A stretch of DNA of 64,000 nucleotides. It comes from Desulfobacteraceae bacterium (lineage in GTDB: Bacteria > Desulfobacterota > Desulfobacteria > Desulfobacterales > Desulfosalsimonadaceae). Position numbers and translations under genes: made by a program. Location: positions 28,839 through 92,838 of the forward strand of contig JAABUA010000002.1 in assembly GCA_011389515.1 (NCBI GenBank). Reading direction: 5' to 3'. Positions 25,800 through 47,992 of the stretch are shown piece by piece; the stretch's first letter is position 1, and each line of letters begins with the position of its first letter. Below the pieces are notes generated by a model. That model was not told the DNA's origin, made no database searches, and worked only from the letters and a program-made list of their open reading frames with translations.

Positions 25800-25812
25800 A
25801 AGGATCGTCTGG

Positions 25813-26250: not shown

Positions 26251-26406
26251 GAAAAGTCCTTGCATGTATGTATTGCACGCAGTTTGCGGCCGTTTCTTGC
26301 GCAGCATGTCGTTTTGTCAACAAAATATTTGTTTTTAATGCCTTTTGTCAATTGAAAACGGCTCCTTTGAAAACAGCCCCCGGCGATTTGCCGGCCCGGG
26401 CGGTTA

Positions 26407-29980: not shown

Positions 29981-30234
29981 ACGTCGTGCTCCCTGTGTCC
30001 ATCTTTCTTATGTGGTCATGGTTTTGGTAACCCGCCTGTTCCTTTCAATACGCTTTTTTCTGCCGGGGATCTATAAAAAAAGATGACAGCCCATTGCTTT
30101 TGTCAACCAGGATATTACACCAGTGTCCACTTCCGGAGGACACTTTTTCTGCAAGCCTTTTTCCCGCGTTTGGTTTTTTATTATAACTATTTGAAATTCA
30201 ATATAATAAATTATTTATCAAATGCCATCGGATA

Positions 30235-30249
30235 TGGCACGACCTTTGA
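30235..30249 (+). promoter_or_regulatory. Sigma-54 (-24/-12) promoter candidate
   Basis: TGGCACG-ACCT-TTGA: a perfect -24 element with correct spacing, but -12 reads TTGA rather than TTGC. It lies 58 nt upstream of the ATG at 30307. Confidence 0.45.
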
Positions 30250-30306
30250 AATGATAGATAGCGCATTCCCGTACAAACCGAAAAAGAGAAAAGGGAGGCG
30301 AAATAT

Positions 30307-30837
30307 ATGATGAAAATTCCAGGTCGAAAAATCATCAAGCACTTTTTAAATGAAAGGAAACCGGGCATGGATGCGGAAAAAGAGATGAAATTGATGCTCG
30401 TCGATGATGAAGAGCGCTTTTTATATGCAATGGAGAAATTGCTGACCAAAAAGGGCTATGACATCCAGACAGCATCCAGCGGGGAACAATGTCTCGATAT
30501 TCTATCAAAAAATCGCATCCATGTGGTCATACTCGATGTCAAAATGCCGGGGTTGGATGGATTGGAGACACTCAGAAGGATAAAACAGCAGTATCCGCTG
30601 GTCGAGGTAATTCTGTTGACCGGTCACGGCACGGTGGAATCTGCTGTGGATGGTCTGAAATGCGGTGCCTCTGATTTTTTAATGAAACCGATCAGCGCTT
30701 CTGATCTGCTGGACCGGGTAAAAGATGCTTTTGCCCGCAGTCGCGCGGTGGAAGCCAAGATTGATGAGGCACGCTCCCGCAGATTCATGCAGCAGTCTCC
30801 CCGTGACATCTTGAATGATGCGGATGCAAAGGAATAA
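30307..30837 (+). CDS. Single-domain response regulator (REC plus a charged helical tail), module 1
   Basis: GGGAGG RBS 8 nt before the ATG. LMLVDDEERF, VVILDVKMPGLDG, VILLTGHG and FLMKP motifs. An alternative start at 30367 is possible. Confidence 0.85.
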   Translation: MMKIPGRKIIKHFLNERKPGMDAEKEMKLMLVDDEERFLYAMEKLLTKKGYDIQTASSGEQCLDILSKNRIHVVILDVKMPGLDGLETLRRIKQQYPLVEVILLTGHGTVESAVDGLKCGASDFLMKPISASDLLDRVKDAFARSRAVEAKIDEARSRRFMQQSPRDILNDADAKE

Positions 30838-30843
30838 GGCTTG

Positions 30844-32601
30844 ATGGAGCCACGCAAAAGTGCGGATAGGGAAAACATGAACAATACCGATGCCCGGATG
30901 CGTAAAACTGTTCTTTTCAGTATGATCCTCGTCCCGGTGATTCCGTTTGCGCTGGTGATTTTGGTTGGGTATTTTTACTCGGCGTTTACCATTGAAGCAA
31001 GAACGGTCGAGTCTCTGCAGCGGATTGTGAATGACCACAGGCAGATGATCGATACGTTTCTCCGGGAGCGCCGAACGAACCTGGAATTCGTCATTAACAC
31101 CAATTCTTTCGAATCGCTCAGCCGACCGCACAATCTGGCCTTTGTGTACGATAACCTTCGGGGAATATCCAACGCTTTCGTGGATTTGGGCGTCTTTAAC
31201 GAAGAGGGTCTACATGTCGCATATCATGGTCCGCACCAGTTGAGTGGTAAAATATACAAGGACGAACCCTGGTTCATGGAGGTTATTCAAAACGGCGTGC
31301 ATATAAGCGACGTGTTTCTTGGCTTCAGGGGATATCCGCACTTCATTATTGCGGTTGCCAGAAAGGAAAACGGGAAGATATGGGTTCTTCGGGCGACCAT
31401 CGATACCTATATATTCAACGATATGGTCGGACGCATTCGCATCGGCAAAAGCGGTGAAGCATATATCATCAACAAAGACGGCATTTTTCAGACGGCGCCC
31501 TTTGCCGGTGAATTTCTGCTTCAGCAAGATCCGAACCGGGCGCTGTATCTGAGGCGTCACGAAGGCATTAAAACGTTTATTGGCAATCAGAATTTTATCG
31601 GGATCTCCCTGCCATACATGCCAGGGGATATTTACCTGTATGCCACAACCTGGCTGGAAGAAAAACCATGGTTGATGGTGGTGCGCCAGGAAAAACAAGA
31701 CGCCTTTCGAAACCTCCGTTTTGCAATGTATTTAATCGCGGTCATCGCGATTGCGGGTCTGGCAGCGATTATCGGTCTTGCCTTCCAGCAGACCGGCCGG
31801 GTGGTGCGCCGGATCAAGCGGATGGATGCGGAGAAAAAAGGCCTTGAAAATCAGTTGATCCGGGCGACGCGCCTTGCCGAACTGGGGCAGATGGCCGCCG
31901 GTTTCGCCCATGAAATCAACAACCCCCTTCAGGTTATCCGCAGTGAACAGGCACTTATGGAATTTATCATAACAGAGATAAAGGAAATGCAAGAAAATGC
32001 AGATGAATCATCCTTTGCAGAGCTGGAAGATTCGATTCACCAGATGACCATCCAGATAAACCGGTGCGCCCATATTACACAGGCGATATTGAATTTTGGC
32101 CGGTATACCGAGCCGGACATGGAAAATATTCGACTCAGTGATTTTGTTGGCGAGATAATCGTCATGATATCCCGCAAAGCCGCCGTCCATGGCATCTCTG
32201 TAAACCAGCGCATCGCGGATGACACACCGTTGATATACGGAGACAAGGGGCAGTTGCAGCAGGTTCTGCTCAACCTGCTGAATAATGCCATCGATGCCGT
32301 TATTGAAAAACACGGATCAAAGGAGGGTGAAGTCCTGATCTATGCCGGAAGGACCGAAGACGGTCATGTCGAGGTTTCGGTGCAGGATAACGGCGCAGGT
32401 ATCAGCGCGGAAAATTTTGACAAAATCTTCACTCCCTTTTTCACCACCAAGCCGCCGGGCAAGGGCACAGGGCTTGGGTTGTCGGTCTGCTACGGAATCG
32501 TGGAAAACCTTGGCGGCAAAATGTCTGTGAGCAGCCATGAAGATGTCGGCACGACGTTCACCATATGGTTTCCAGCGGCGGAAAACAAGAGCGCCCAATA
32601 A
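30844..32601 (+). CDS. Sensor histidine kinase with a Cache/PDC-like periplasmic domain, module 1
   Basis: Two TM segments flank about 240 aa (..[34 protein letters not shown]..). H-box [11 protein letters not shown]; [21 protein letters not shown]. There is no HAMP or PAS between TM2 and HisKA. Confidence 0.9.
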
Positions 32602-32652
32602 GTCAATACAGGAATTGCATGGACCTGGAAACATCTTTCTAAGGAGGAAATC

Positions 32653-32787
32653 ATGAGCCGGAGTTTTCGAAAAATTTTTAAAACCGGTGTGATCCGCATA
32701 CCGGCCAGAATCGAACGAACCTTTTTCTTCTGGGCAACCATAATCGCCGTCACGACATATCTGGCAAACCGTTTTTTTGCCTATTAA
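32653..32787 (+). CDS. Small ORF (44 aa) absent from the supplied track; predicted single-pass membrane peptide
   Basis: AAGGAGG RBS 5 nt (AAATC) upstream of the ATG. MSRSFRKIFKTGVIRIPARIERTFFFWATIIAVTTYLANRFFAY: a basic N-terminus followed by one hydrophobic helix. It lies between the kinase and the permease and is below the 60-aa cutoff of the ORF track. Confidence 0.5.
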   Translation: MSRSFRKIFKTGVIRIPARIERTFFFWATIIAVTTYLANRFFAY

Positions 32788-32827
32788 AAGGGGTTTTCTG
32801 AAACAAAACAGATGAAAGGAGGAGATA

Positions 32828-34684
32828 ATGTCGCAAACCGAAGAAGCAAGGACGAAACCGTCAGGCTATGACAAGTATATTAACTGGAAGCTTTTCGCAA
32901 TCCCACTTGTCCTTCTGATTCTGATCCTTTCGATGCCCGTTCCCCAAAGCATGCTGGATGTCGGAGTGGAATACTCCATGGGGGAGAAATATGTTAAAGA
33001 ATATTTTTCACAGGAGCTTTTCGAACAGCCCCTGCCTGAGTTGGCGCAGTGGCAGGTCCAGATGGTTCGAATGATGAATCAGCATGTGCAGATGTCTTCT
33101 TTCAGCCAGAAAGCCTTTCTGGCCAGAAACGAATCCTGGCTGAACAGAAACGATATTCCTACGAACCCGGCACACCTGGAAAAAGTTCGTGAGCGGGCAG
33201 CGCAGATCCCCGAGGACCGCTTTGTAAGCCTGCTGATGGAGGGGCATAAACTGCAGACCGAAACATTGACGTATGAAAACCTGGGCGAAGCGGAGAAAAA
33301 GGCGGCCAGAAAAGCGGCATTTCATGTAAAAGTGGGGGTAGGCATCGTCGTCTTCGTGGTCCTGTGTTTTGTCACCGAAGCCATGCCGCTGCCCATGGTT
33401 GCATTTTGTATCGGTATTATCGCCATGTTGACCGGGGTTGTTACAAGGGCAAATGTGTCCATGCTCTACTGGTCGGATGCCACATGGTTTATTATGGGGA
33501 GCCTCATGTTTGCCACGGCATTTGTCAAAACCGGCGTGGACAGGCAGATTGCCATGGCCATGTTCGGCAGAATGAAAAATGCGGATGTTAAATGGATCTC
33601 GTTGGTCATTGTGCTGGTCATTGCCCCGTTGACCATGTTTATGTCCGATCATGCCCTGGCAGCCATGTTTCTTCCCATCGGGATTCTATTGTATACGACG
33701 ACCGTCAGTGCGACCGGAAACGAAGACCCCGAGCTTGCCAAGATGCTGATGATAACGATTGCCATGGCCGCCAATCTGGGAGGGTCACTGGCACCGTCCG
33801 GCGCGGCCAGAAATATCATCATGATGGGGTATACCGAGGAAATGTTCAACCTGCAGATTACATTCATGCAATGGGTCATGTATTGCGCGCCTTTTCTTCT
33901 TTTTCTGATGCCCATCACCTGGATTGTCATCAATTGGCGCTTTAAACCTGTGGAACGGGATATGGCGAGGGCTTTGGGCGTTGTAAAGCGTGAAGTCGGG
34001 AAAAGCGGCGGCTGGACTCGTCCGCAGATTATTTCATTGATCATTTTTATCGTGATGTTTCTGGGCTGGGTTACGGAAAGCAACATTTTAAGAGATCTGA
34101 TCGGAGTCCGCCTTGGCATCGGCACCGTGGCCGTAATGGGCGGTGTCGCATATATTCTGGCGGGCGTGGTAAACTGGCGGGATTACCAGACCAAGGTGGA
34201 CTGGGGGGTTGTCTGGCTATATGCCGGGGCGATTATTTTCGGCAGGGTGCTGGTGGATACAGGCGGGGCATACTGGATTGCGCGGACGCTTCTTTTGATC
34301 ACCGAGCCCCTTGGATTAGGGCAAGGCCTTGGCCTGCTGTTGTCCGGCAATGTCATCACCGGTCTTATGACGCAGCTCATGGCAGACGGCCCGGCCTGTG
34401 CAGCCGTGGGGCCGGTTACGCTCTCCATGGCGGGTATCGCCCACCCGGGCACCGCGATGATCCCGTTTGTGGCAATGGGTACTTCCATCGCCTCTTCTTT
34501 TGCATACATGCTGGTAATCGGTACGCCGCCCAATGCCATTGTTTATGCCAGCGGCTATCTCCATGCAAGGGATTACCTTCGTGTCGGCGTAATCCTGTGG
34601 TTTACCAACATGGCGGGCCTGCTGCTTCTGGCGTCAACGTACTGGCGGTGGATGGGATTCGGCGATCTTCCGATGCCTTTTTAA
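32828..34684 (+). CDS. DASS/SLC13-type (ion-transporter superfamily) anion permease with an extra N-terminal TM and a 125-aa loop, module 1
   Basis: 618 aa, polytopic. Hairpin-type motifs AMAANLGGSLAPSGAARN and VIGTPPNAIVYASGY are typical of DASS/CitMHS/ArsB-like permeases. GGAGGAG RBS. Confidence 0.8.
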   Translation: MSQTEEARTKPSGYDKYINWKLFAIPLVLLILILSMPVPQSMLDVGVEYSMGEKYVKEYFSQELFEQPLPELAQWQVQMVRMMNQHVQMSSFSQKAFLARNESWLNRNDIPTNPAHLEKVRERAAQIPEDRFVSLLMEGHKLQTETLTYENLGEAEKKAARKAAFHVKVGVGIVVFVVLCFVTEAMPLPMVAFCIGIIAMLTGVVTRANVSMLYWSDATWFIMGSLMFATAFVKTGVDRQIAMAMFGRMKNADVKWISLVIVLVIAPLTMFMSDHALAAMFLPIGILLYTTTVSATGNEDPELAKMLMITIAMAANLGGSLAPSGAARNIIMMGYTEEMFNLQITFMQWVMYCAPFLLFLMPITWIVINWRFKPVERDMARALGVVKREVGKSGGWTRPQIISLIIFIVMFLGWVTESNILRDLIGVRLGIGTVAVMGGVAYILAGVVNWRDYQTKVDWGVVWLYAGAIIFGRVLVDTGGAYWIARTLLLITEPLGLGQGLGLLLSGNVITGLMTQLMADGPACAAVGPVTLSMAGIAHPGTAMIPFVAMGTSIASSFAYMLVIGTPPNAIVYASGYLHARDYLRVGVILWFTNMAGLLLLASTYWRWMGFGDLPMPF

Positions 34685-34699
34685 TACCGGGAGGTAACA

Positions 34700-35230
34700 A
34701 TGCAGTCAATGGATCGAACAGCATTCCGGTCGAAAGGGACCGGTTTTTACAGGGACGTGGTGAAGATTCTCCTTTATCCGGGACAATTTTATGCGGCAAT
34801 GCCGGATTTGAAACAAAAGAGGGAGGCTGTCGCCTTTTTATGCATCTGTGTGGTCATATACAGCGCTGCGGCGACAATTTTCGCCTATGAAAACCATTTT
34901 TTTTATTTTTTTATGTTTCTGGCAAATGGGTTGCTTATCCCCATTGTCACGTTTGCGGCTTTGTTTTTGGTTCTTTTCATGACAGGTGCAGGAAGAACCG
35001 GGCATGCAGCAGCACTATGCATTGTCGCATATGCCGGCGTAAGCCTGTTGTTTGCCTGGATACCGGGGATGGCTCCTTTTGCTGAAATTTATAAATACTA
35101 CCTGGTCGGTCTGGGCCTTGTAAAGGCCGGGAAAATGAGTCTGGCAAGGGCGATTGCGACACTTTTGGGAACAATCGCATTGTTATGGCTGGTGCTGCAT
35201 TTTGCACAAATCCTGACCGGGAACGCCTGA
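34700..35230 (+). CDS. Yip1-like five-TM membrane protein
   Basis: 176 aa with about 5 hydrophobic helices and a Yip1-like N-terminal segment (FYRDVVKILLYPGQFY). GGGAGG RBS, 15 nt after the permease stop. Confidence 0.5.
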   Translation: MQSMDRTAFRSKGTGFYRDVVKILLYPGQFYAAMPDLKQKREAVAFLCICVVIYSAAATIFAYENHFFYFFMFLANGLLIPIVTFAALFLVLFMTGAGRTGHAAALCIVAYAGVSLLFAWIPGMAPFAEIYKYYLVGLGLVKAGKMSLARAIATLLGTIALLWLVLHFAQILTGNA

Positions 35231-35291
35231 AAGGAATAATTCTTTCCGATCGGCCCATTGCGGCATATATGATTATACAGGAGGAAAAGCA

Positions 35292-36218
35292 ATGAGTGAT
35301 AAAATAAAGGTGTTGATGGTTGATGATGAAGAGCGGTTTCGGGAAACCACCGAAAAGATCCTCAGGAAAAAGGGGTTTGATACGATACTGGCGGCAACCG
35401 GGGAGCAAGCCCTGGATAAGTTGGCGGAAGCCCCGGACGTGGTGGTGTTGGATGTCAAGATGCCGGGCATGGACGGGCACCAGGTGCTGCGGGAAATAAA
35501 AGAAAGGAATCCGGATATGCCGGTCATCATGCTCACCGGCCACGGCAAGAAACCTTCGGCAAGGATCGCACTGGAGCAGGGGGCATTTGATTATCTTACC
35601 AAGCCGTGCGATATTAACGTGTTATCTGCAAAAATCCATGAAGCATGCCATTATTCCGGTGTCGATCACCCTGAAGAGGAAAAGCGGGTGCGTGACATTA
35701 TGGTTCCCATAATGGATTACACCACCATAAAAGAGGATGAATCCATCGGCGAGGCTTTCCGGAAACTCCGCGAATCATTTTCACTGGCCGCATGCACCAA
35801 CCGCCTGATGGAAACGGGACATCGCTCCATCCTGGTATTTGACCGGCAGGGCAACATGAAGGGAATCCTGTCCATCCGAAATGTCCTGGAAGGGATAATG
35901 CCGGCCTACCTTTCCGCCCCGAGGCCTTCCATGGCGGACGGTATACAGTATTCCCCCATGTTCTGGGGCGGCGCATTCAACAGAGAGATACGGGAGCTGG
36001 CGGATAAAAAGGTCAGCCGGATCATGTCGCCTGCCCCCCCGGTAATCCGTGACGACGCAAACCTGATGGAAGCGGCGTACATGATGGTAACTCAAAATTA
36101 CCGGAGAATGGCGGTGATCCAAAAGGAAACCGTGGTGGGCGTCATTCGGGAACAGGACCTGTTCTTCGAGATGGAAAAGGTGCTGCGATCAAGCCGAAGG
36201 GAAAAAGATGTGCCATAG
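35292..36218 (+). CDS. Response regulator with a CBS-pair output domain (REC-CBS)
   Basis: VLMVDDEERF, VVVLDVKMPGMDG, VIMLTGHG and YLTKP motifs, then two CBS-like repeats (VRDIMVPIMDYTTI...; VSRIMSPAPPVIRDDANLMEAAYMM...MAV). AGGAGG RBS. Confidence 0.85.
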   Translation: MSDKIKVLMVDDEERFRETTEKILRKKGFDTILAATGEQALDKLAEAPDVVVLDVKMPGMDGHQVLREIKERNPDMPVIMLTGHGKKPSARIALEQGAFDYLTKPCDINVLSAKIHEACHYSGVDHPEEEKRVRDIMVPIMDYTTIKEDESIGEAFRKLRESFSLAACTNRLMETGHRSILVFDRQGNMKGILSIRNVLEGIMPAYLSAPRPSMADGIQYSPMFWGGAFNREIRELADKKVSRIMSPAPPVIRDDANLMEAAYMMVTQNYRRMAVIQKETVVGVIREQDLFFEMEKVLRSSRREKDVP

Positions 36219-36376
36219 ATAACTTCAAAATTCGCGGTATTTTTTTGAAATATAAAGATTCTCGGGCCTTGATGGATTCATCTTGACAAATATTTCAAAT
36301 TTTGGTTTAACAACACCTTTTGCGGCCTTGGGAAGGTGCGTTTTTGAAGCCATAAACCCTAAAGACCGGTACAATA

Positions 36377-38155
36377 ATGTCGAGACCTGAAGCGAAGCAT
36401 TCTGGTTCGAACCAGAGGGTCGGAAACAATCCTGCGACAGCGGATTCTACATCCGCACCCCACCAGGAGTCCGTCCGCTTTTATCACCGCCGCCTGAAAC
36501 AAGGCATCCTCCTCTGTCTTCTGATAACCTACCTGATCCCTATTGTTGCTATAACAGCATATTTTAATTATAAATTTAATTCAAATATGCGGGAAAGCAG
36601 CAAGCTGCAGCTCACGGCGGTGGCCGAAAGCCAGAGAAACACGATCGATCTTTTCATGCAAAAGCGGATCGTAAACGTGTTCAATCTCTTTCACATGAAA
36701 GGATTTTCCCTGGAGCCATCGCGGGACGATATGCATGCATACCTGGAAAACCTCATACGGTCCGATGATGCATTCGTGGATGTGGGACTGATCAATCCGG
36801 AAGGGATACAGGCGGGATATGCCGGGCCGTATCCCCACCTGCGCGGCAAGGATTACAGTGAGGAAAAATGGTATACCGACCTGGTCCGTCAGCCGGAAAG
36901 CTATATTGTTACGGACCTTTACCTGGGGCTGCGCAAACATCCTCATTTTACCATCGGGGTCAAGCAGTTGATGGATGGCGATTATTACGTGATCCGAACC
37001 AGTGTCTACCCGGACAAGCTGGAAGATTTTCTGCGTGCGATCAATCACAGCAAGCAGGCACGAGGATTTCTGGTGAACCGGGAAGGGATTTATCAGGTTG
37101 TCGTCCCTGAATTCGGAACATTGCTGGAGCCTGCCCCGTATGCCCCGGAAGCGGGAAGCCAAGCCGATGTGGGAGTAATAAAAGTAAACGGCAACTCCAT
37201 GCTGGCGGCCCACACCTGGCTGAAGGAAGTCCCGTGGTGCCTGGTGATGCTGCAGCCGGAAGCCGTCGCTTTCGAGGAGATGTATGTCATCAGAAATACC
37301 ATGATCATCGGTGCTGCCATTTTGGTGCTGGTGATCATGGTATTTATATGGATTGTCGTCAACCGGCTGTTCAGTCGGGCGCAGGCCGTGGAAGAGGAAA
37401 AGGTGGAGCTCAAAAGCCAGTTGTACCATGCGCATAAACTGGTTTCCGTCGGCCAGCTCGCGGGCGGTGTGGCCCATGAGATCAATAACCCCCTGGCCAT
37501 TATTGAATCGGAAGCTGGTATCATACGGGATATGCTCGACCCGGAATTGGGACTGGAGGCTTCTCCGGATGCGATCGTAAAAGAGCTCGATGAAATTGAC
37601 AAGGCGGTCAACCGGGCAAAGGGGATTACCCAGAAAATATTGAGCTTTGTTCGCAAAACCGATCCGAAACTGGTGGAATCCGATATCAACCAATTGCTTG
37701 AGGAAGTCGTATCCGGCGTCAAGGAGCAGGAGTTCAAGGTCTCGGACATCCGCCTTGTAAAGGAGTTTGATCCCGCTCTGCCAAAACTGCAGCTGGATCC
37801 CGATCTCATGCGGCAGGTTTTTCTCAACCTGCTCAACAATGCCAGTGACGCGGTCGACAAGGGGGATACCATTACCTTGAAAACGGAAACCGAAAAAGGT
37901 TTCGTAAAAATCATCGTGGCCGATACGGGAAAAGGGCTGAGTGCAGACCAGCTTGAAAAAATTTTCATGCCGTTTTTTACCACCAAGAAAGTGGGAAAAG
38001 GGACCGGGCTTGGCCTCCCCATCAGCCTGAATATCGTCGAGGGTTTTGGCGGTCGTATCACGGTTGAAAGCACACCGGGCACGGGAACGGCTTTTACGAT
38101 CTTTTTGCCGGCAGCAGGCAGAGGCGGGACGAGTCGCGGGGAGGGCGAAAACTGA
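36377..38155 (+). CDS. Sensor histidine kinase with a Cache/PDC-like periplasmic domain, module 2
   Basis: Paralogue of 30844-32601 (..VTDLYLGLRKHPHFTIGV..ARGFLVNREGIYQ..). H-box [11 protein letters not shown]; LLNNASDA, DTGKGL, GTGLGLP. Confidence 0.9.
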   Translation: MSRPEAKHSGSNQRVGNNPATADSTSAPHQESVRFYHRRLKQGILLCLLITYLIPIVAITAYFNYKFNSNMRESSKLQLTAVAESQRNTIDLFMQKRIVNVFNLFHMKGFSLEPSRDDMHAYLENLIRSDDAFVDVGLINPEGIQAGYAGPYPHLRGKDYSEEKWYTDLVRQPESYIVTDLYLGLRKHPHFTIGVKQLMDGDYYVIRTSVYPDKLEDFLRAINHSKQARGFLVNREGIYQVVVPEFGTLLEPAPYAPEAGSQADVGVIKVNGNSMLAAHTWLKEVPWCLVMLQPEAVAFEEMYVIRNTMIIGAAILVLVIMVFIWIVVNRLFSRAQAVEEEKVELKSQLYHAHKLVSVGQLAGGVAHEINNPLAIIESEAGIIRDMLDPELGLEASPDAIVKELDEIDKAVNRAKGITQKILSFVRKTDPKLVESDINQLLEEVVSGVKEQEFKVSDIRLVKEFDPALPKLQLDPDLMRQVFLNLLNNASDAVDKGDTITLKTETEKGFVKIIVADTGKGLSADQLEKIFMPFFTTKKVGKGTGLGLPISLNIVEGFGGRITVESTPGTGTAFTIFLPAAGRGGTSRGEGEN

Positions 38156-38302
38156 CTTGCGGCGATCTGCAGGCAGATGCCGGCGCATGCATACCATCCG
38201 CGCAAAAGTGGTCAATGGGAAAATATATAGAACATATATAAAAAGGATATGGGTTTATGAACAGATACGATGTAAAACAAATTTATCAAAAGGGAGGGTA
38301 AC

Positions 38303-40348: not shown

Positions 40349-40460
40349 TCGTGACGGCAAATAAAAAACCGCTTGACATGCACATGGGTCTTTCCGGACA
40401 ATTGTGATATTTGGAAAGACCCATTCGCATGGCGGATTTCTCCTGGAGGAAGTATTTGTT

Positions 40461-40949
40461 TTGAATGACAAAAAGATTAATGTGTTGCTGGTGGATGACG
40501 AGGAAGCCCTGCTTGATTCCATGCGCCGCCGGTTGCAGTTCCGCGATTTCAACGTGATTGCGGCCAGCAGCGGGAAAAAGGCACTGGAGATTGCACGCGA
40601 GAATCCGGTGGACGTGGCTATCGTTGACATCAAAATGCCCGGAATGAGCGGCCGGGATGTGCTTTTGGCACTCAAGGAAGAATATCCATGGGTGGAGGTC
40701 ATCATTCTGACCGGGCACGGCTCGTTCAGCCCCGAGGAAGAAGGAATCGCGGAAAAAATGCATTCCTGCCTGGGAAAGCCTTGTGATCTGGCGACCCTGC
40801 AGCAGGTGTTGACCGATGCATACAAGAAAACCGTAATGAACCGCCGGGAAATTGCGCCGCAGGAGATGGATGCGATGCTGAACAGCGCTGAAAAAAAATC
40901 CCCGGATGCGGTATTGAAGCAATTAAAAGAACTGGATGTCGATCGTTAG
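40461..40949 (+). CDS. Single-domain response regulator (REC plus helical tail)
   Basis: TTG start 9 nt after GGAGGAA. VLLVDDEEAL, VAIVDIKMPGMSG, IILTGHG and a Lys in CLGKP. Confidence 0.75.
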   Translation: MNDKKINVLLVDDEEALLDSMRRRLQFRDFNVIAASSGKKALEIARENPVDVAIVDIKMPGMSGRDVLLALKEEYPWVEVIILTGHGSFSPEEEGIAEKMHSCLGKPCDLATLQQVLTDAYKKTVMNRREIAPQEMDAMLNSAEKKSPDAVLKQLKELDVDR

Positions 40950-40979
40950 TTGAAACCCGAATGTAACGGAGGTTTGAAA

Positions 40980-41534
40980 ATGGAGTCGATTGCAGTCAAG
41001 GATATGATGATCCCGCTGGAGGACTATGCAACCGTATCCGAGGATGCCACTTTGGCAGAGGCGGTTTTCGCTTTGGAGGATGCCCAGAGCCATTTCGACC
41101 AGAACCGCTACCAGCACAGGGCGATTCTGGTGTATGACAGAAGCAAAAAGATTGTGGGAAAGCTCAGTCAACTCGACGTATTAAAGGCCCTTGAGCCGAA
41201 GTATACAGGGGCGGGTAATTTCGAGGAACTTGACCAGTTCGGGATCAATGCGGATTATATACGAGATCTTATCGATGAACTGGGTCTTTTGAAAAATCCG
41301 GTGCAGGATATCTGCCGCAAGGCGGCAGCGGTCAAGGTAAAAAATGTCATGTATACCCCGACAAAAGGGGAGATTGTCTCCGAGACGGCAACCCTCAACG
41401 AGGCAATCATCCAGTTGCTGGTGGGAAAGCACCAGTCGCTTTTGGTGACCCGGGAAAAAGAGATTGTGGGGATATTACGGTTGACCGACGTGTTCAAAAA
41501 GGTCACCGACATGATCAAGGCCTGTAAAATCTAA
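40980..41534 (+). CDS. CBS-pair domain protein
   Basis: Start trimmed to ATG 40980 (GGAGG RBS). VKDMMIPLEDYATVSEDATLAEA... and VKNVMYTPTKGEIVSETATLNEA...LLV are two CBS repeats. Confidence 0.8.
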   Translation: MESIAVKDMMIPLEDYATVSEDATLAEAVFALEDAQSHFDQNRYQHRAILVYDRSKKIVGKLSQLDVLKALEPKYTGAGNFEELDQFGINADYIRDLIDELGLLKNPVQDICRKAAAVKVKNVMYTPTKGEIVSETATLNEAIIQLLVGKHQSLLVTREKEIVGILRLTDVFKKVTDMIKACKI

Positions 41535-41542
41535 CGCGCGTA

Positions 41543-41590
41543 TTTTTTGCCGGCAGGGGGAGTCATGCATGTTTGCCCCTGCCGGTTTTT
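41543..41590 (+). terminator. Intrinsic terminator of the plus-strand operon (hairpin shared with the convergent operon)
   Basis: CCGGCAGGGG-16 nt-CCCCTGCCGG followed by TTTTT on the + strand. On the minus strand the same hairpin is followed by an A-run, so it is canonical only for the + direction. Confidence 0.7.
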
Positions 41591-41595
41591 CCCGG

Positions 41596-42027
41596 TTATC
41601 TGCCCCGCGTGGTGATTTCTTTTATTTGCGCTTCAATGATCTTTTCTTCCTGTTTTCTCTTTTTCGCAGCGGCTTCTGTTGTTTTGCTCACAAGCAAATC
41701 GATATCGCAGGGCTTCATCAGGTAATCAAAAGCCCCTTTTTTCATACCCTCGATGGCGGATTCGACCGTTGCATGGCCGGTGAGCATAATGACTTCCTTT
41801 AGCGGATGATGCGTTTTAATTTCTTTGAGGGTCTCGATGCCGTCCATGCCGGGCATTTTCACATCCAGCACCACCACCTCGATGTTGGGATGGGCTTTCA
41901 GTTTTTCCAGGGCTTCTCTGCCATTAAAAGCCGGAATGATATCCAGGTCCCGCCTGGTCAGCCTTTTGGTCATGGTCTCCACAAAAGGGACTTCATCATC
42001 GACCAGCAATACGGTTGCTAAAGCCAT
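41596..42027 (-). CDS. Single-domain response regulator (REC plus charged helical tail), module 3
   Basis: VLLVDDEVPF, VVVLDVKMPGMDG, VIMLTGHA and YLMKP motifs. AAGGAG RBS. Confidence 0.88.
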   Translation of the reverse strand: MALATVLLVDDEVPFVETMTKRLTRRDLDIIPAFNGREALEKLKAHPNIEVVVLDVKMPGMDGIETLKEIKTHHPLKEVIMLTGHATVESAIEGMKKGAFDYLMKPCDIDLLVSKTTEAAAKKRKQEEKIIEAQIKEITTRGR

Positions 42028-42038
42028 CTGATTCTCCT

Positions 42039-43820
42039 TTATTCTTCTTCTTGAAAACTATTGTTTACCGGCAGCACGATGCTGAATTTTGTGCCTACGT
42101 CCACTGCACTTTCAACATCGATCCTGCCGCCCATTTTCTGGACAATGCCGTAGCATATGGAAAGCCCCAGCCCGGTACCCCTGCCGACCTGTTTGGTAGT
42201 GAAAAACGGGTCGAAAATACGGTTCAGGTTGCTTTCGGGAATCCCCGGCCCGTTATCCTGTATGGTGATCGTAATCCATTCATCTTCCGCTTTTGTGCTG
42301 ATATCGAGCCGCCCGCCTTTTTTTTCCATGGCATCAATAGCATTGTTGATGATATTCATCAGCACCTGCTGCATTTCCGTAGCCGAGGCCTGTATGTCCG
42401 GGAGGTCGGGCTCGAGCTGCGTATGGACGTCCACACTGGCGTACCTGGATTTTTGTGAGGAGAGGGAGACGACCTCTTCAATAAGGTCATTCAGTTGAAT
42501 GGCATGCACTCTCGAATCGGTTTTTCGCGCAAAACTGAGCAGTTTATGGGTGATCTCCTTGCAGCGTATCCCCTGGGTGCCGATCTGTGCCAGGGCACGC
42601 TGGAATTCCTGAAGGTTATCTTTTTTATCAATGCCTTCCTCCAGCAGGTCTTGAATCCAGCCGGCCTCTTCCACCATGATGGCCACCGGGTTATTGATTT
42701 CATGGGCGATTCCAGCCGCAAGCTCACCGATGGTTGCCAGCTTTCCGGTTTCAACGATCTGTTTGTTCATCATTTCCTTTTCGGAATCAACCCTTGCAAT
42801 GCGCTTTTCCATCTGCCTGGAAAGAAGAAACGCAACCATGATGATGCCAAGTGTGCCTATAAAGAGGATAAGGGCCGCGATTTTTTGCGTACGGTTCAGC
42901 TTAGCATAGGCATCGTCCGCCTCTTGCTGGAAAATCAGGAGCCACTCGTTTCCCTTGAGAAAGGCGGCGACAATAATGATATTCCGGTCGAGGGAACCGG
43001 TTTTTTCAACGGTGATAACCGGGTCGACAACTTCTCCGCTTCCCGAATCCCATCCTTTGATAACCGGGAAAACAAGCCAGTCTATCACTTCTGTGGACGC
43101 AATTCCCCTGTTGTATCCCCTTTCAAACAAATTGAGATACTGCTCCTTGGACAGCTTGGCATCTCTGGGGGGGCGCGTCTGGAAGTCTCCCTGCCGGTTG
43201 AGGATGAATGCCGACCCGGTTTCCCCCACCGTAAGGTTTTCAACCAGGATATTAAAGGCATGAAAATCAATGGTGGCACGCAGTATCCAGTGTGCACCGT
43301 CATCCGCCGTCATCCTCGTGGATACAATAAAGTGCGGCTGGTCCCGCAGTCCCAGAAATACGTCGCTGATGTAGTGCTTTTTGTTGATCGCCTCCGTGAA
43401 CCATGCCGCATCTCCGTAAAACGCCGCTTCAAGCCGGAACGGACCGGCATAGGCCATTTGCTGCCCCTGTTGGTTGATCAATCCCAGGTCAACAAATACG
43501 GTGCTGTATTCATCCTGCAGGATGTTCAAGCGTTCCTTTAAAAACCGTTCATCCGTGAAGGCCTCCAGTTCAAAACTTCTGGAAAGATGCCGTATATCGC
43601 TCAGCTTTTCCTGGAGAAAAAAATCGATGTTGTGCTTGTGTTTCAGCACCATCTCCTCCAGGTGGGCATTGACCATCTCGTGGGAGAAAGCGTTGAAGCG
43701 GTAAAGAATGATGCCGGTTACAAGGATCAGGGGCGCAAGGGATACAACGATAACAATCATCGCCACCCGTCGGGAGATGTTTTTGTAATAGGCATCGTCA
43801 TGTTTTCTGTCTTGGGTCAT
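42039..43820 (-). CDS. Sensor histidine kinase with a Cache/PDC-like periplasmic domain, module 3
   Basis: Paralogue of the module 1 and 2 kinases (..[32 protein letters not shown]..). H-box [11 protein letters not shown]; [21 protein letters not shown]. Confidence 0.9.
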
Positions 43821-43852
43821 ATTGGTATCCAGATCGTAGATTTTTTATTGTG

Positions 43853-45274
43853 TTACGGCAAAATCTCAATGGTTGGATACAATCCCTTATTGGCCCCTTC
43901 CGGATACGGCTGGATGATATTGTATGAAATGATCTGGCTCTGCTGGGCATGCCCCATTTTTTCCCTGCCGTCGAAATACGCGCCGTTGGCTTCAAGAATG
44001 TGCTCGATTCGGTGCCTGAACGCGTCGGCAAAGTTTTTTCCGCTTCCTTTGAAGTGCATCCGGCCCCTGGTAAATTCGCCGTCTATAGCGGCAATTTCCG
44101 CCAACGGGATGCTGTTTTGATCCACGTCGTCCTGGTTCCGGATAAACCCCCAGACGACGCTTGATGGGGCAATCGTCACGGCTTCGGCAAGGTCAATGAT
44201 CGTATGGGGCATGATAATACTGTTTTCTCCGATTTTCAATTGAAACCCGTCTGCCCCCCGGAGAAACGAATTAAACCCGACAAACACGTTTTCACCCAGA
44301 TGGGCATGGATGATTTTTGCCCCGTGCGCGGTTACGTCGTACCCTGAAAGGTGCGAGTCTATGATAAAACAGTTTTCCTGGGCATTGGCGCCTTTTCCCA
44401 TGTATGAATTCTTAACATATGCTCGCTGGGAAATCAGGACGTTCTCTTTGATGCGAACTTTCGGTTTTACAACGGCATACCGGCTCAGGGATGCGGAATC
44501 CGGAATTACGCCGAAACTTTCAAGATTGAATGCATCGAATATGCGCTGGAAATCTTCCTTGCGGTCTTCCACAAAATCCATGAATATGCCCTTCGGCATT
44601 CCTCCCGGTTCAAACCGGATATAGTTTTGGAGGATTTCCGGGTCGTGACGGTAGTGAAAATCAAACGCACCCGCAGCGGAAATCCATATGGTGCCCGCCG
44701 GCACCTGGTGATGGGCCAGTTCTTTTTTCTGGAGATATACGAACTCACCGATGACGCAGTCGTGCAGGGTGGTGAGGTCGACCGTGCTGAAAGGGCCCAG
44801 AAAGCATCCTTCCACGTCGGAGCCGTGGATATTGGCATAATGCGTTGATACGGTGTTGTAGATGGTGAATTCCTCTGGATGCTCGGGATCGTGGGAATTG
44901 TTGTGGACCAGGGTTTTCACCAGGCAGCTGTTTTTGATGTGGATGGTTTCATCTTCATGAAGTGGGACGGCAAACCCTTCGTAGTGGAAAATGTCCCCTT
45001 TCCGCTTCAGTTCATCTCCCCGTATATCGCTTTTATACAAAATGGAATCGGATACGTGGCATTTGCCGAGGAAGTAGCTCCCGGCCAGATTGGAACGGGA
45101 AAAATAAAAATTCGGCGGGTATTGAGGTGCAATACCGTAAAATGCGTAAAATTTGACCATCTGCTCCCAGGGAACCAGCCCCTCGATATAGGGGGCAGCA
45201 TCGAACAAGGGCTCCCGAAGATTGATATTGACGCGCTGGATGATTCGTTCCAGCAGCTCCTGTAATTGTTCCAT
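43853..45274 (-). CDS. Hypothetical protein with a left-handed beta-helix-like core (473 aa), function unknown
   Basis: AAGGAG RBS. Hexapeptide-like periodicity in ..IKENVLISQRAYVKNSYMGKGANAQENCFIIDSHLSGYDVTAHGAKIIHAHLGENVFVGFNSFL.. No catalytic family recognised. Confidence 0.6.
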   Translation of the reverse strand: MEQLQELLERIIQRVNINLREPLFDAAPYIEGLVPWEQMVKFYAFYGIAPQYPPNFYFSRSNLAGSYFLGKCHVSDSILYKSDIRGDELKRKGDIFHYEGFAVPLHEDETIHIKNSCLVKTLVHNNSHDPEHPEEFTIYNTVSTHYANIHGSDVEGCFLGPFSTVDLTTLHDCVIGEFVYLQKKELAHHQVPAGTIWISAAGAFDFHYRHDPEILQNYIRFEPGGMPKGIFMDFVEDRKEDFQRIFDAFNLESFGVIPDSASLSRYAVVKPKVRIKENVLISQRAYVKNSYMGKGANAQENCFIIDSHLSGYDVTAHGAKIIHAHLGENVFVGFNSFLRGADGFQLKIGENSIIMPHTIIDLAEAVTIAPSSVVWGFIRNQDDVDQNSIPLAEIAAIDGEFTRGRMHFKGSGKNFADAFRHRIEHILEANGAYFDGREKMGHAQQSQIISYNIIQPYPEGANKGLYPTIEILP

Positions 45275-45305
45275 GATTCACTCCTTGGATCATTTATTTA
45301 TTGAT

Positions 45306-46778
45306 TTACCCCAATGTTATTTCCATTCCCATCAGCGGCCATACCAGCAATATGGTAAGCCCAAGGACCGCCAAAAGCAGGATGGATGCGGGAATGCCGG
45401 TGATAAAAAATTCTCCGCTGGTAAACTGTTTGGAATTGTATGCAATGGCATTGGGGGCGGCCCCGACCAGCAGCAGAAAGGGCATGCCGGCCACAACCAG
45501 GGCTGCAAACAGAATGATCTCGCCGCTGACCCCGAGGTAGGGAGCCACGACCAGGGCCACCGGAAGGGATATGGCAATGGAGGCCACGTTCATGATGAAG
45601 TTGGTCATGATCATGATGAAAAATGCGATACCCATGACAAATATGAACCAGTGGCTGTCCTTGAAAAACCCCAGCCAGTTGATGGCCAGCCATTCGGCTG
45701 CGCCGGTCTGCCACAGGCAGAAACCGATGCTCATGGCCCCGGCGAACAGCAAAATGATATTCCATGGAATATCTTCCAGGTCATGAATATCCAGGATGTG
45801 AAAAATAAAAAAAAGCACGGTGCCCACGAGAATAATGGCCGATTTGTTGAACGGCGCCAGCGCCGGGATGAACGATTGGAGAGACAGAAACAGGATGGTG
45901 CCCCCGACGATCAGGGCGGCAATGATTTCGTTGCGCTTCAGGGGGCCCATATCCGCATTGAGCTGCCGGGCCTTTTCCCGCAATCCCGGGATGCGGTCCT
46001 TCTCCGGTTTGAAAAAGAGCATGAAAAAACCCCACAGCAGAAAGACCATCAACCATCCTATGGGGGCCATGTAGTAGCTTAGTTCGAAAAAGGAAATGTC
46101 ATTTCCGGTGATTTCCTTGTAAAACCCCAGTGCGACGATGCCCCGTGCAGCGCCAAGAAGGGTGATAATGGAGCCGGCGCCCGCCACAAAGGCCATTCCC
46201 ATGAAAAGGCCCTTGCCGAATCGCGTGGGGGTCGTATCGGTCGTGTACAATGCGTAAATGGCAAGCAAAAGCGGGTACATGGTGGCTGCCACCGCGGTAT
46301 GCGCCATGATGTGCGTCAAGAGTGCGGTGACCACGAAGCATCCCAGGTAGATGCGGCTGGTCTTCTCGCCAACGATCATCAACATCTTGTATGCCAGCCG
46401 CTTGGTGAGCCCCACCTTTGTAAACACCATGCCGATGGTGAGCGACCCGAAGATGAACAGAACCGACGGATCCATGAAATCCCTGAATGCATCGCCTGCA
46501 GGGCGGATGAAAAAAAGTGCCTGCACAACGCCGATAAGAATGCCGGTCACACCGATGGGAAGTACTTCAAACACCCAGAATGTGCCGGCAAGCAGGAACA
46601 GGGCCAGTGCCCCTTTGGCCTGATGGCTCAGTTCGAATTGTTTCCCCATCGGATCGATGGCATCCGGCCAGGGCGGGGAATAATATACCAGGAGAAACAA
46701 ACCAATGCCGATTGCCATGAACAGCAGGCGTTTCCAGTCAAAATCGCTCTTTTCAAGTTGAGAAGTGCTCTCTGCCAT
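45306..46778 (-). CDS. DASS/SLC13-type (ion-transporter superfamily) anion permease, module 3
   Basis: 490 aa, polytopic; VGAAPNAIAYNS hairpin motif and overall similarity to the other two permeases. AAGGAG RBS. Confidence 0.8.
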   Translation of the reverse strand: MAESTSQLEKSDFDWKRLLFMAIGIGLFLLVYYSPPWPDAIDPMGKQFELSHQAKGALALFLLAGTFWVFEVLPIGVTGILIGVVQALFFIRPAGDAFRDFMDPSVLFIFGSLTIGMVFTKVGLTKRLAYKMLMIVGEKTSRIYLGCFVVTALLTHIMAHTAVAATMYPLLLAIYALYTTDTTPTRFGKGLFMGMAFVAGAGSIITLLGAARGIVALGFYKEITGNDISFFELSYYMAPIGWLMVFLLWGFFMLFFKPEKDRIPGLREKARQLNADMGPLKRNEIIAALIVGGTILFLSLQSFIPALAPFNKSAIILVGTVLFFIFHILDIHDLEDIPWNIILLFAGAMSIGFCLWQTGAAEWLAINWLGFFKDSHWFIFVMGIAFFIMIMTNFIMNVASIAISLPVALVVAPYLGVSGEIILFAALVVAGMPFLLLVGAAPNAIAYNSKQFTSGEFFITGIPASILLLAVLGLTILLVWPLMGMEITLG

Positions 46779-46803
46779 AAGGATCTCCTTGCCGAAAAAG
46801 TTG

Positions 46804-46833
46804 ATTATATTTGGAAAAATCGAAAATTATCAA
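46804..46833 (-). promoter_or_regulatory. Sigma-70-like promoter candidate for the DASS-LbH-HK-RR operon
   Basis: On the minus strand: TTGATA, 18-nt spacer, TATAAT. The -10 element ends about 26 nt upstream of the ATG at 46778. Confidence 0.45.
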
Positions 46834-47068: not shown

Positions 47069-47992
47069 TTAGCAGAACCAGATCGCCATGTTGGCCGATG
47101 CCTGGAGTATTTTTCCGGACACGCCGCCCAGGGCATATTCCTGCTTGTTGGAGCTGCCGTGCCGGCCCATGACGATGGAGCCGAAACCGTTTTTCCGGGC
47201 AAAGTTTAAAATGTCGTCGGCCGGGTTGCGGGTTCCTGAGAGAATCTTGGATGTGATCTGCGTTTCTTTCATCCCCGCCTTGATCAGCTTGTCTCTCGCC
47301 CGTGTCATGAACGGGGCAATCTGCTCTTCCAGCTTGGTCTGCCATATCTGCTCCATTTCCGGTGCCGCACTGACGACTTCGTCCGGAAGATAGCTGCACA
47401 GATCCTGCTTGGTATGGATCAGGGTGATTTCCGCCTCGGTGCCCGCCATCATCTCCGCTGCCGTGTCCACGGCGCACATGGCGTTGTCTGAAGCGTCGAT
47501 GGCCATGAGGACCTTTTTGGACTCCACCTGGCTGTTGATCTGGACGATAGGGATGGCGCGGCAGTTTTCAATGATGTGGCTCGATACACTGCCGGTGAAA
47601 AATTTTTCGAGCCGGCTTCTGCCGCGTGCGCCCACCACGATAGCCCTTGCTCTTTGTGTTCCGGCGTACTGGCAGATATCCCGGGCAGGTCCCTGTTTTT
47701 TGGGTTCCGCGTGGCCATGGATGTTGTTTTTGGGAAAACCCCGGCTGATCAGTCGTTCCCTGGCTTCCGAAAGGATGGTGTCCGCCAGTTCCTTGTTTCT
47801 TTTTTCAATGGCTTCGATCTGCTTTTTTGATTCCCGCCGAACCATGGGATCGTCGAACAGGGGAGGAAGTCCCGGAACAATATAGAGCAGTTCAAGCACC
47901 AGGTCGATTCTCGAGGAAAGCATCATTGCAATATAGTCGAGCGCTTGCATGGAATTCTGGGAATTATCAACAGCGACCACCAATTTGGCCAT
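47069..47992 (-). CDS. Tandem universal stress protein (two UspA domains)
   Basis: Two repeats, each starting (K)(L/V)(V/L)(V/M)A(V/I)D.S.N(S/A)M.A(L/V)D. C-terminal IVMGRHGSS...LGGVSGKIL ATP-binding-type motif. AAGGAGG RBS. Confidence 0.85.
   Translation of the reverse strand: MAKLVVAVDNSQNSMQALDYIAMMLSSRIDLVLELLYIVPGLPPLFDDPMVRRESKKQIEAIEKRNKELADTILSEARERLISRGFPKNNIHGHAEPKKQGPARDICQYAGTQRARAIVVGARGRSRLEKFFTGSVSSHIIENCRAIPIVQINSQVESKKVLMAIDASDNAMCAVDTAAEMMAGTEAEITLIHTKQDLCSYLPDEVVSAAPEMEQIWQTKLEEQIAPFMTRARDKLIKAGMKETQITSKILSGTRNPADDILNFARKNGFGSIVMGRHGSSNKQEYALGGVSGKILQASANMAIWFC

Follow-up and report, generated by a model that had tools for sequence, protein, structure and literature searches.

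A conserved cluster of DASS carriers, Cache-type sensor kinases and output-less receivers in a Desulfobacteraceae genome, and its possible control at the protein level

A 30.5-kb 'DASS-type sulfate transporter' cluster has been described in Desulfosarcina variabilis 3be13 (Wöhlbrand et al., Sci Adv 2025, PMC11887813). It combines carriers of the DASS family with 'numerous' two-component systems and CBS proteins, and related clusters were reported from 26 sulfate-reducing species. The figure legend of that study lists the DASS carrier, a sensor kinase, a response regulator, a universal stress protein (USP), a CBS protein and a response regulator with a CBS domain. The regulators are called 'of the WalR type' and are drawn as binding to promoters; the cluster, the sulfate hypothesis and a regulatory model that includes putative protein-protein interactions have thus been in print since 2025 (PMC11887813). 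For loci of this type in Ds. variabilis and D. toluolica, the same study counts the symporter, the CBS protein and the hexapeptide-repeat protein among the constitutive proteins. In D. multivorans, the symporter Dmul_C10650 is formed constitutively according to the genome paper, and data S1 of PMC11887813 assign the same status to two neighbours, Dmul_C10640 (response regulator) and Dmul_C10660 (CBS protein). Here, we analyse a 64,000-nucleotide stretch of contig JAABUA010000002.1 from a Desulfobacteraceae bacterium (hereafter the window), which carries the source organism's copy of this conserved Desulfobacteraceae DASS carrier, two-component and CBS cluster. All components of the published cluster are found between positions 19878 and 51031, i.e., over about 31 kb including the flanks, as delimited by Pfam scans of the flanking open reading frames (ORFs).

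The Ds. variabilis cluster is thus of nearly the same length and shares with the present one the DASS carriers, the Cache kinases, the response regulators, the fusion of a receiver to a CBS pair, the CBS protein, the USP and the hexapeptide-repeat protein. The locus of D. toluolica, one of the strains of PMC11887813, is syntenic with the present one. The difference lies in the regulators, which belong to the 'WalR type' according to the paper, whereas here they are NtrC-like and carry no DNA-binding domain.

Several better-known systems resemble the locus in part. CitT is a member of the DASS family, and both CitA/CitB-CitT and DcuS/DcuR-DcuB/DctA of E. coli place a Cache-superfamily periplasmic sensor kinase beside an anion carrier. 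However, CitB and DcuR bind DNA while the present receivers have no domain for doing so; moreover, the present sensor is a double Cache domain, the kinase core is AtoS/ZraS-like and the carriers lack the SNT motifs. A preliminary description of this DNA had drawn the analogy with CitA/CitB/CitT. It holds as far as the pairing of a Cache kinase with a DASS carrier is concerned but is otherwise loose, since the kinase core and the receivers are NtrB/NtrC-like and no DNA-binding receiver that could regulate a carrier gene lies within the two arms of the locus. In the rhizobial DctB/DctD-DctA system, the kinase has the same order of dCache, transmembrane (TM) helix, HisKA and HATPase without HAMP, the solved DctB sensors match the model of one of the present sensors (HK2, below), and NtrC-family-like receivers likewise stand in a sigma-54 setting. 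DctD has AAA+ and HTH outputs, of which the present receivers have none, and DctA belongs to a transporter family different from DASS. CheY, which acts on FliM, and CpdR are single-domain response regulators that work through protein contact, as the output-less receivers of the locus might, except that the proposed target here is a secondary transporter. In MgtE, ClC, OpuA and SulP-STAS, the membrane carrier is presumed to be gated by a cytoplasmic module that binds a ligand, as proposed here; in the present locus, however, the CBS pair is separate or fused to a receiver rather than to the carrier, and the receiver adds a phosphorylation input. MgtE is also invoked by the authors of PMC11887813.

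The cluster holds three anciently diverged modules, each composed of a kinase with a periplasmic dCache domain, receivers without an output domain and a DASS carrier. The reading that we judge somewhat better than evenly probable is that this is the published cluster, in which Cache-kinase/receiver modules control the carriers at the protein level while transcription is governed by a separate sigma-54 layer. Its novelty is low: cluster, sulfate hypothesis and regulatory model were published before, and the receiver-carrier fusion of D. toluolica already bears the UniRef name 'Response regulator modulated sodium/sulf…' (ending not shown). Literature searches on receiver-transporter fusions returned no description beyond this annotation name. 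What is added is a correction of the regulator type, a conserved cassette, a probable sigma-54 layer and atypical binding-site motifs, that is, corrections and sharper hypotheses rather than a new kind of system. Sulfate uptake and the switching between high and low affinity in sulfate reducers bear on carbon mineralisation rates in marine sediments, and this cluster is the leading candidate locus for such uptake, already published as such.

Genes were mapped from the ORF list and domains were assigned from Pfam scans, which agree in coordinates and domains with an earlier gene-by-gene map of 14 genes in two convergent arms. Two Pfam matches fall below the gathering score (Yip1, 26.3 vs 28.6; dCache_1 in HK2, 32.6 vs 45). 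Module 1 opens the plus arm with the stand-alone receiver REC1 (30307-30837, 176 residues; Response_reg, E 7e-32, as its sole domain), followed by the dCache_1-TM-HisKA-HATPase_c sensor kinase HK1 (30841-32601, 586 residues), an ORF of 44 codons (32653-32787), the carrier DASS1 (32828-34684, 618 residues; Na_sulph_symp, E 1e-44) and a Yip1-like membrane protein with four hydrophobic segments (34700-35230). A second receiver of this module is encoded after the carrier and is fused to a CBS pair (REC-CBS, 35292-36218, 308 residues). Module 2 consists of the dCache sensor kinase HK2 (36377-38155, 592 residues; assigned by Pfam, AlphaFold and Foldseek), the fusion REC::DASS (38303-40348, 681 residues), in which the carrier bears the receiver at its cytoplasmic N-terminus, a further receiver gene, REC4 (40404-40949), and an abutting gene for a CBS-pair protein (40950-41534). 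Module 3 occupies the minus arm, where DASS3 (45306-46778, 490 residues), a left-handed beta-helix protein (43853-45274, 473 residues; Hexapep_loop), the dCache_1 kinase HK3 (42039-43820, 593 residues; Pfam and TM map) and the stand-alone receiver REC5 (41596-42027, 143 residues) follow one another. The single hairpin noted between the arms at 41543-41590 was recovered with its stem at 41549-41586 (dG -27.6 kcal/mol, z = -2.66) and is read as a bidirectional intrinsic terminator because T/A runs flank it on both sides.

To place the locus among its relatives, one genome per GTDB species was scanned, which yielded 24 loci with a full or partial relative of REC::DASS; together with those of D. 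toluolica (L001) and Desulfonatronum (L002), this makes 26 loci, other L numbers below denoting further related loci. Their ORFs were classed against the window's proteins and the neighbours of REC::DASS were tallied. The hosts are Desulfobacteraceae, Desulfotignum, Desulfosarcina, Desulfatitalea, Desulfosudaceae, Syntrophobacteraceae and Desulfatiglandales, and three further loci come from metagenome-assembled genomes (MAGs) labelled Planctomycetota, Poribacteria and unclassified. Without exception, the 120 top-ranking database relatives of REC::DASS share this fusion (59-97% identity). The closest genome in the scan is the Desulfobacteraceae MAG S22.Bin143, at 90% identity for REC::DASS. In 17 of the 21 loci that are informative on the upstream side, the gene directly before REC::DASS encodes an HK2-type kinase, so the linkage of kinase and permease that the preliminary description had put up for checking is clearly conserved; in three more (Desulfotignum), the place is taken by an HK3-type kinase with a REC5-type receiver. 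Downstream, a REC4-type receiver follows the fusion in 20 of 25 informative loci, and in 18 loci one of the next two genes encodes a CBS pair like that of the window. What is conserved as a unit is the series HK2-type Cache kinase, REC::DASS, REC4 and CBS, which occurs across Desulfobacterota and in a few other phyla. A second cassette, with an HK1-type kinase, a REC1-type receiver, a DASS1-type carrier that has the long insert near its N-terminus, a Yip1-like protein and REC-CBS, recurs in D. toluolica, L004 and L020, where orthologues of REC-CBS are found; a stand-alone receiver directly precedes DASS1-type carriers in L001, L012, L018 and L020.

The locus is syntenic with L004 at 70-95% amino-acid identity. 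Its gene order is also shared by D. toluolica and by a Desulfosarcina MAG; in D. toluolica, the order runs kinase, REC::DASS, REC, kinase, REC, DASS, small ORF, Yip1, REC-CBS, CBS, CBS and USP, the kinase upstream of REC::DASS (L001 7911-9956) carrying an N-terminal receiver of its own. A Desulfonatronum genome has the series kinase, REC::DASS, REC and kinase, and in addition more receivers, a CBS protein, a PPDK-like protein and a DASS3-type carrier. The locus of this alkaliphile also has a dsrC gene about 6 kb downstream. That the same gene order recurs in independent genomes speaks against a chance arrangement. The age of the modules was addressed with a neighbour-joining tree of 30 kinases (no bootstrap), which puts HK1, HK2 and HK3 into three clades of their own, each together with orthologues that come from other genera and families. 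Consistently, HK2-type sensors are 39-94% identical across genomes (one outlier at 30%) compared with 22-25% to HK1 and HK3, and DASS3 is 70-86% identical to orthologues in other orders compared with 23-24% to DASS1 and REC::DASS. Since the kinases group with distant orthologues, and DASS3 is nearer to its own than to its neighbours, these comparisons indicate that the modules are ancient paralogues kept together rather than local duplicates; recent local duplication, a possibility raised earlier for phylogenetic checking, is ruled out by the kinase tree and the DASS3 identities.

The three kinases are full-length paralogues (31-33% identity, E 1e-88 to 1e-110), as had been suggested. Each has two TM segments flanking a periplasmic domain of about 255-275 residues, and about 30 residues separate TM2 from HisKA with no Pfam match to HAMP or PAS, in agreement with the direct connection described before. 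The H, N, G1, F and G2 boxes (AHEINNP, NLLNNA, DxGxG, FxPFFTTK and GTGLGL) are complete in all three, as expected of HisKA-type histidine kinases, and are kept in 69 aligned sequences. The sensor motif, which in HK2 reads VTDLYLGLRKHPHFTI, has a 16-residue counterpart in HK1 and HK3; like the H box and the receiver motifs, it is thus present as reported. The AHEINNP box, although present in all three, had to be dropped as their signature, because the upstream kinase HK0 carries it too, its likeness to HK1-3 being limited to the catalytic core. In NCBIfam, the kinase core is closest to AtoS/ZraS (E 1e-56 vs 3.5e-24 for WalK), and the JGI name for the kinase is 'NtrC family sensor kinase'. The sensors score 62.0 (HK1), 61.9 (HK3) and 32.6 (HK2) against dCache_1, with a cut-off of 45, and AlphaFold models that of HK2 (pLDDT 83.6) as a typical dCache domain, i.e., a double PAS-like fold between two TM helices, with a target-normalised TM-score of about 0.75 to the PctA and CtaA ligand-binding domains (Foldseek). 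Its best fold neighbours, PctA, CtaA, McpH, KinD and DctB, bind amino acids, purines, pyruvate and C4-dicarboxylates; none of the neighbours of the HK2 model binds sulfate, and the fold does not assign the ligand. Among the three kinase types, Arg207 never varies and Arg186 and His190 hardly do, which is compatible with an anionic ligand and proves nothing. Within HK2, the coding sequence of TM2 contains a 46-nucleotide near-perfect palindrome (37297-37342, plus strand; 20 pairs with G-T allowed, 6-nucleotide loop). It is the top match of the terminator scan and may be a by-product of hydrophobic codons.

The five receiver domains are 36-54% identical to one another and share motifs, which bears out their grouping as one subfamily. 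Asp12, Asp13, Asp57, Thr87 and Lys109 (CheY numbering) are kept in all five and in three more receivers nearby, so that the Asp-Asp pair, the phospho-Asp, the Thr and the Lys of a phosphorylatable receiver are complete; in REC::DASS, the corresponding D63, T91 and K113 are invariant in 64 homologues. Beyond the receiver domain, there are tails of 28-45 residues, and no DNA-binding Pfam domain was found in any of the five at E<=0.01 (no Trans_reg_C, no HTH), just as the preliminary description had it. They also lack the C-terminal winged helix of the OmpR/WalR type. The fused receiver is closest in NCBIfam to GlrR, AtoC and NtrC (E ~1e-20; GlrR 7e-21) compared with 5e-13 for YycF/WalR, and the closest solved receivers are NtrC1 and Spo0F. 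As the receivers are NtrC-like and lack an output domain, and the kinase core is AtoS/ZraS-like, the label 'WalR type' of PMC11887813 does not hold, on sequence grounds, for this locus or for the related loci examined, every one of which has output-less receivers of the same kind. REC4 has a Cys at the position of the Tyr106 switch residue of CheY, which is compatible with a role as phosphate sink or adaptor. Its alpha4-beta5 region is unlike that of the other receivers. Receivers are found fused to the carrier, to the CBS pair and, in D. toluolica, to a kinase, and these fusions argue for action at the protein level.

That the permeases are DASS carriers is well supported. Pfam Na_sulph_symp scores 153.8, 115.6 and 150.0 bits on the three (cut-off 27), and NCBIfam TIGR00785 (cut-off 198.6) gives 207.1 for DASS1, 198.5 for DASS3, just under, and 150.4 for REC::DASS, under. 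DASS1 shares 31% identity with REC::DASS, and each of the two shares 23-24% with DASS3. The search against solved structures returned VcINDY (E 3e-19) and human NaS1 (E 1e-18), and the AlphaFold model of REC::DASS (pLDDT 84, pTM 0.78) superposes on NaS1, NaCT and VcINDY with target-normalised TM-scores of 0.73-0.82, so that the DASS (elevator) fold of its carrier is confirmed at the level of the model. No structure in which a receiver and a DASS carrier are joined was found among its 50 best PDB fold matches. The receiver of REC::DASS is cytoplasmic, because it precedes the first TM helix (residues 161-179). Between TM1 and TM2, REC::DASS has a confidently modelled extracytoplasmic segment of about 55 residues, and DASS1 has an extracytoplasmic insert of 130 residues (41-170; 32948-33337, plus strand) that is kept in the DASS1-type carriers of L001, L004, L012, L018 and L020 and is 36-38% identical in D. 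toluolica, Desulfotignum and L020; the corresponding loop of DASS3 is short. At the substrate site, the HPin motif, the HPout motif and loop L5 read SEH, SDG and GGRN in REC::DASS, SDH, ADG and AARN in DASS1, and AHT, MNV and AARG in DASS3. S342-E343-H344, R398-N399 and S580/G582 are invariant in 64 homologues of the fusion. Judged from these motifs, the binding sites of the carriers differ from those of every characterised DASS carrier.

A further layer concerns transcription. A sigma-54-like -24/-12 element, TGGCACGACCTTTGAA (TGGCAC-N5-TTGAA), lies at 30235-30250 on the plus strand, 57 nucleotides upstream of the REC1 start, and is the sole exact match in the window to TGGCAC-N5-TTG(A/C)(A/T). 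Its -24 element is perfect. When one mismatch is allowed, three matches are found against 5.3 expected, a count that is unremarkable by itself; another sigma-54-like match, at 34920, was disregarded as it lies inside the Yip1-like gene. The site is aligned in the relatives L004 (TGGCACGGCCTTTGAA) and L021 (TGGCATGATCCTTGAA) within an otherwise diverged spacer. About 100 nucleotides further upstream, at 30122-30144, stands a palindrome, AGTGTCC-N9-GGACACT, with a counterpart at the aligned place in L021 (TGTCTCCT-N3-AGGAGACA) and an imperfect one in L004, and the stretch between palindrome and sigma-54-like site is AT-rich. The palindrome is a candidate enhancer-binding-protein site, and the layout as a whole is typical of enhancer-dependent promoters. 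It appears that 30235-30250 is probably the sigma-54 promoter of the plus arm. Canonical TGGCAC-N5-TTGC(A/T) sites are located directly upstream of cluster genes in D. toluolica (CBS gene), Desulfotignum (receiver operon) and L020 (receiver), and canonical sigma-54 sites occur in the loci L001, L011, L012, L018 and L020.

Regulators that could serve such a promoter are encoded on both sides. Some 300 nucleotides away from the plus arm and divergent from it lie HK0 (27782-29980, minus strand), a dCache and PAS sensor kinase whose position is kept in L004 and L021, and an NtrC-type sigma-54 activator with REC, AAA+ and HTH_8 domains (26407-27807, minus strand), which overlaps the end of HK0. On the other flank, a sigma-54 activator without a receiver (49062-50555, minus strand; its N-terminal 190 residues have no family match) is kept next to the USP in L004 and L026, and is a candidate cluster regulator that would answer a cytoplasmic signal. 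The earlier claim that transcriptional output is missing is thus correct for the five receivers and not for their neighbourhood, in which two sigma-54 activators flank the arms and a sigma-54-like site is conserved. Upstream of DASS3, a sigma-70-like promoter (TTGATA-18-TATAAT, 46804-46833, minus strand) matches the consensus at 11 of 12 positions; the best such match in the region, and a consensus match only, it comes just after the USP terminator. The borders of the stretch covered by the preliminary description, 30235 and 46833, coincide with the sigma-54-like and the sigma-70-like element, respectively.

Altogether, these findings lead to a model in which each kinase would respond to a solute outside the cytoplasm, with sulfate or a related oxyanion as the most plausible candidate, and would phosphorylate its own receivers, which in turn would change carrier activity at the protein level, directly where they are fused to the carrier and elsewhere through the CBS-pair proteins. 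The latter could add an intracellular nucleotide or energy signal. Transcription would be separate, the plus arm probably being expressed from the sigma-54-type promoter served by the divergent HK0 and NtrC-type activator, and the DASS3 arm from the strong sigma-70-like promoter. By Rosetta-stone reasoning, the fusions of receivers to carrier, CBS pair and kinase, together with the free receivers next to DASS1-type carriers, suggest a physical complex in which phosphorylated receivers may act on the carrier and CBS proteins may provide a second cytoplasmic input. Direct control of the carriers by phosphorylation is plausible. It would fit the finding that high-affinity sulfate uptake is switched off at high sulfate in sulfate reducers (Stahlmann 1991, as cited in PMC5840216). 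Established here are the architecture and its conservation, the intact catalytic residues, the lack of DNA-binding domains and the conserved promoter-like site; we infer which kinase serves which receiver, how transport is affected, what the sensors bind and what the carriers move.

A bolder and more tentative version of this model, which we hold to be rather less than evenly probable, treats REC::DASS as a response regulator with a secondary transporter as its output: the adjacent Cache kinase would phosphorylate Asp63 and thereby directly gate a carrier for high-affinity sulfate uptake, and REC-CBS and REC4 with the CBS-pair protein would do likewise in trans for the paralogous carriers. If true, this would provide the molecular basis of the fast shut-off of high-affinity sulfate uptake long described in sulfate reducers, and a two-component output class that, as far as literature searches show, has no experimental characterisation.

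A number of observations weigh against the model. No kinase is found upstream of REC::DASS in one of the 21 informative loci (L005), and the Desulfonatronum kinases that flank the fusion (L002 8793-9947 and 12693-13574) are without a Cache domain. The AlphaFold model of REC::DASS carries no inter-domain confidence, and helix alpha4 of its receiver (residues 97-103) is poorly predicted. As regards transcription, the -12 element at 30235-30250 reads TTGA instead of the canonical TTGC, for which reason the plus-arm promoter is graded as probable only, and no canonical TGGCAC-N5-TTGC lies upstream of any cluster gene here, the TTGA variant being present at 30235 only. Published sulfate responses are transcriptional, not post-translational. 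As regards the substrate, both hairpin-tip SNT motifs, which hold Na+ and substrate in VcINDY and NaS1, are replaced in all three carriers, and the sulfate ligands of NaS1, S139, T141, T259 and S260 (PMC10980263), are not conserved, the aligned residues being S..H and a G-G that precedes the invariant R398-N399. Support for sulfate was sought in this alignment with NaS1 and VcINDY; with neither the SNT motifs nor the NaS1 ligands conserved, homology supports neither sulfate nor Na+ coupling.

What points to sulfate is the published expression and proteome data. By the scheme of Marietou et al. (PMC5840216), DASS3 matches group Ci, which is highly conserved, and DASS1 and REC::DASS match group Cii, the carriers of which have 474-691 residues. 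In D. autotrophicum, sulfate concentrations below 100 uM induce group Cii genes (Tarpgaard 2017, cited in PMC5840216), and a group Ci gene is expressed at 15 mM sulfate (PMC5840216); in two Firmicutes, group Ci genes adjoin sat and aprAB (PMC5840216). Such carriers are also formed constitutively and abundantly (PMC5840216, PMC11887813). The earlier suggestion of sulfate as substrate is therefore in line with what has been proposed in print and with the expression and proteome results (PMC5840216, PMC11887813), and receives no support from homology.

It has to be considered whether the information flows in the opposite direction, with the carriers serving as co-sensors and the receivers as phosphate sinks, so that transport would tune kinase signalling to some other output, for instance the sigma-54 activators or the CBS proteins. 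Co-sensing by transporter and kinase is a well-established principle for DctA/DcuB with DcuS and for PstSCAB-PhoU with PhoR, there are several receivers per kinase (REC::DASS and REC4 after HK2), the Tyr106 switch residue is missing from REC4, and the extracytoplasmic inserts of DASS1 and REC::DASS could touch the sensor domains. However, no downstream target is identifiable, and the invariant phospho-site and the covalent link to the carrier are explained just as well by an effector role; we regard this arrangement as unlikely.

Slightly less likely again is conventional transcriptional control as in the published model (PMC11887813), in which the Cache kinases sense external sulfate and 'WalR-type' regulators bind promoters and thereby set which carriers are made. 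In its favour, relatives of the carriers change their mRNA level with the sulfate concentration, and sigma-54 activators and sigma-54-type sites occur in and around the clusters. Yet the five receivers, with their short tails, have neither a winged helix nor any other DNA-binding domain, receivers and kinase core alike score best against families other than WalR and WalK, the receivers of every related locus examined are output-less, and there is no Hpt protein through which phosphate could pass to the NtrC-type activator. Of about the same low probability is the proposal that the carriers take up di- or tricarboxylates as a carbon source and that the kinases sense organic acids in the style of CitA/CitT, DcuS/DcuB or DctB/DctA: carboxylate carriers dominate the DASS family, the fold is no closer to NaS1 than to VcINDY, NaCT and NaDC3, the HK2 sensor model resembles the carboxylate-binding dCache domains of DctB and KinD, and the JGI annotation of the fusion is dicarboxylate transporter, but the carboxylate-binding SNT motifs are absent, loop L5 has an invariant Arg, homologues are constitutive across many growth substrates in six Desulfobacteraceae, carrier relatives respond to sulfate concentration, the named relatives come almost entirely from sulfate-reducing lineages, and DASS3-type carriers lie beside sat and aprAB in some Firmicutes.

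The CBS-pair protein of module 2 is 26% identical to the CBS half of REC-CBS, and a Yip1-like gene also follows the DASS1-type carrier in L001, L004 and L020. The 44-codon ORF located between HK1 and DASS1 is probably a real small gene for a basic, partly hydrophobic protein, since its Shine-Dalgarno sequence (AAGGAGGA), its peptide core (KTGVIRIPARIERTFFFWA…YLANRF.AY) and the position of its stop are kept in L004 while the flanking DNA has diverged with indels. Pfam gave no family match for this ORF, even at E<=1, nor, at the same threshold, for the DASS1 insert, the REC::DASS loop, the N-terminus of the receiver-less activator and the C-terminal part of the PPDK-like protein. The hexapeptide protein of the minus arm matches PDB 3c8v, an uncharacterised 'putative acetyltransferase' (E 8e-165), and annotated hexapeptide-repeat proteins at the matching loci of D. 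toluolica and Ds. variabilis, paired by annotation, are constitutive (PMC11887813 data S1).

The upstream flank of the cluster encodes, in addition to HK0 and the NtrC-type activator, a PPDK-like protein, a receiver, a PAS kinase, a PhnD-like binding protein and another receiver. The last of these is a sixth stand-alone receiver of the same subfamily as the five of the cluster (25813-26307, minus strand). The PAS kinase, the PhnD-like periplasmic binding protein and the two stand-alone receivers make up a further signalling unit (22847-26307, minus strand), in which the ORF of the PhnD-like protein overlaps that of a neighbouring receiver. The PPDK-like protein (19878-22283, minus strand) has 801 residues, with PEP-synthase-like ATP-grasp and swivel-His domains and a C-terminal part of 290 residues without a family. 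Its homologues adjoin receiver, CBS and DASS genes in Desulfonatronum (L002), L026 and L027, and it may be a second phosphoryl-transfer component of the cluster. A dual-specificity phosphatase (18860-19918, minus strand) is encoded next to it. The downstream flank consists of a tandem USP (47069-47992, minus strand) followed by a terminator at 47020-46977, a membrane protein, the receiver-less sigma-54 activator and, directly upstream of the latter with a 4-nucleotide overlap, the gene for another CBS-pair protein (50552-51031, minus strand). The membrane protein (48293-49000, minus strand; 235 residues) has a weak BPSS1780 match (60 bits, cut-off 90), and a BPSS1780-like membrane protein is found between the USP and the sigma-54 activator in L004 as well.

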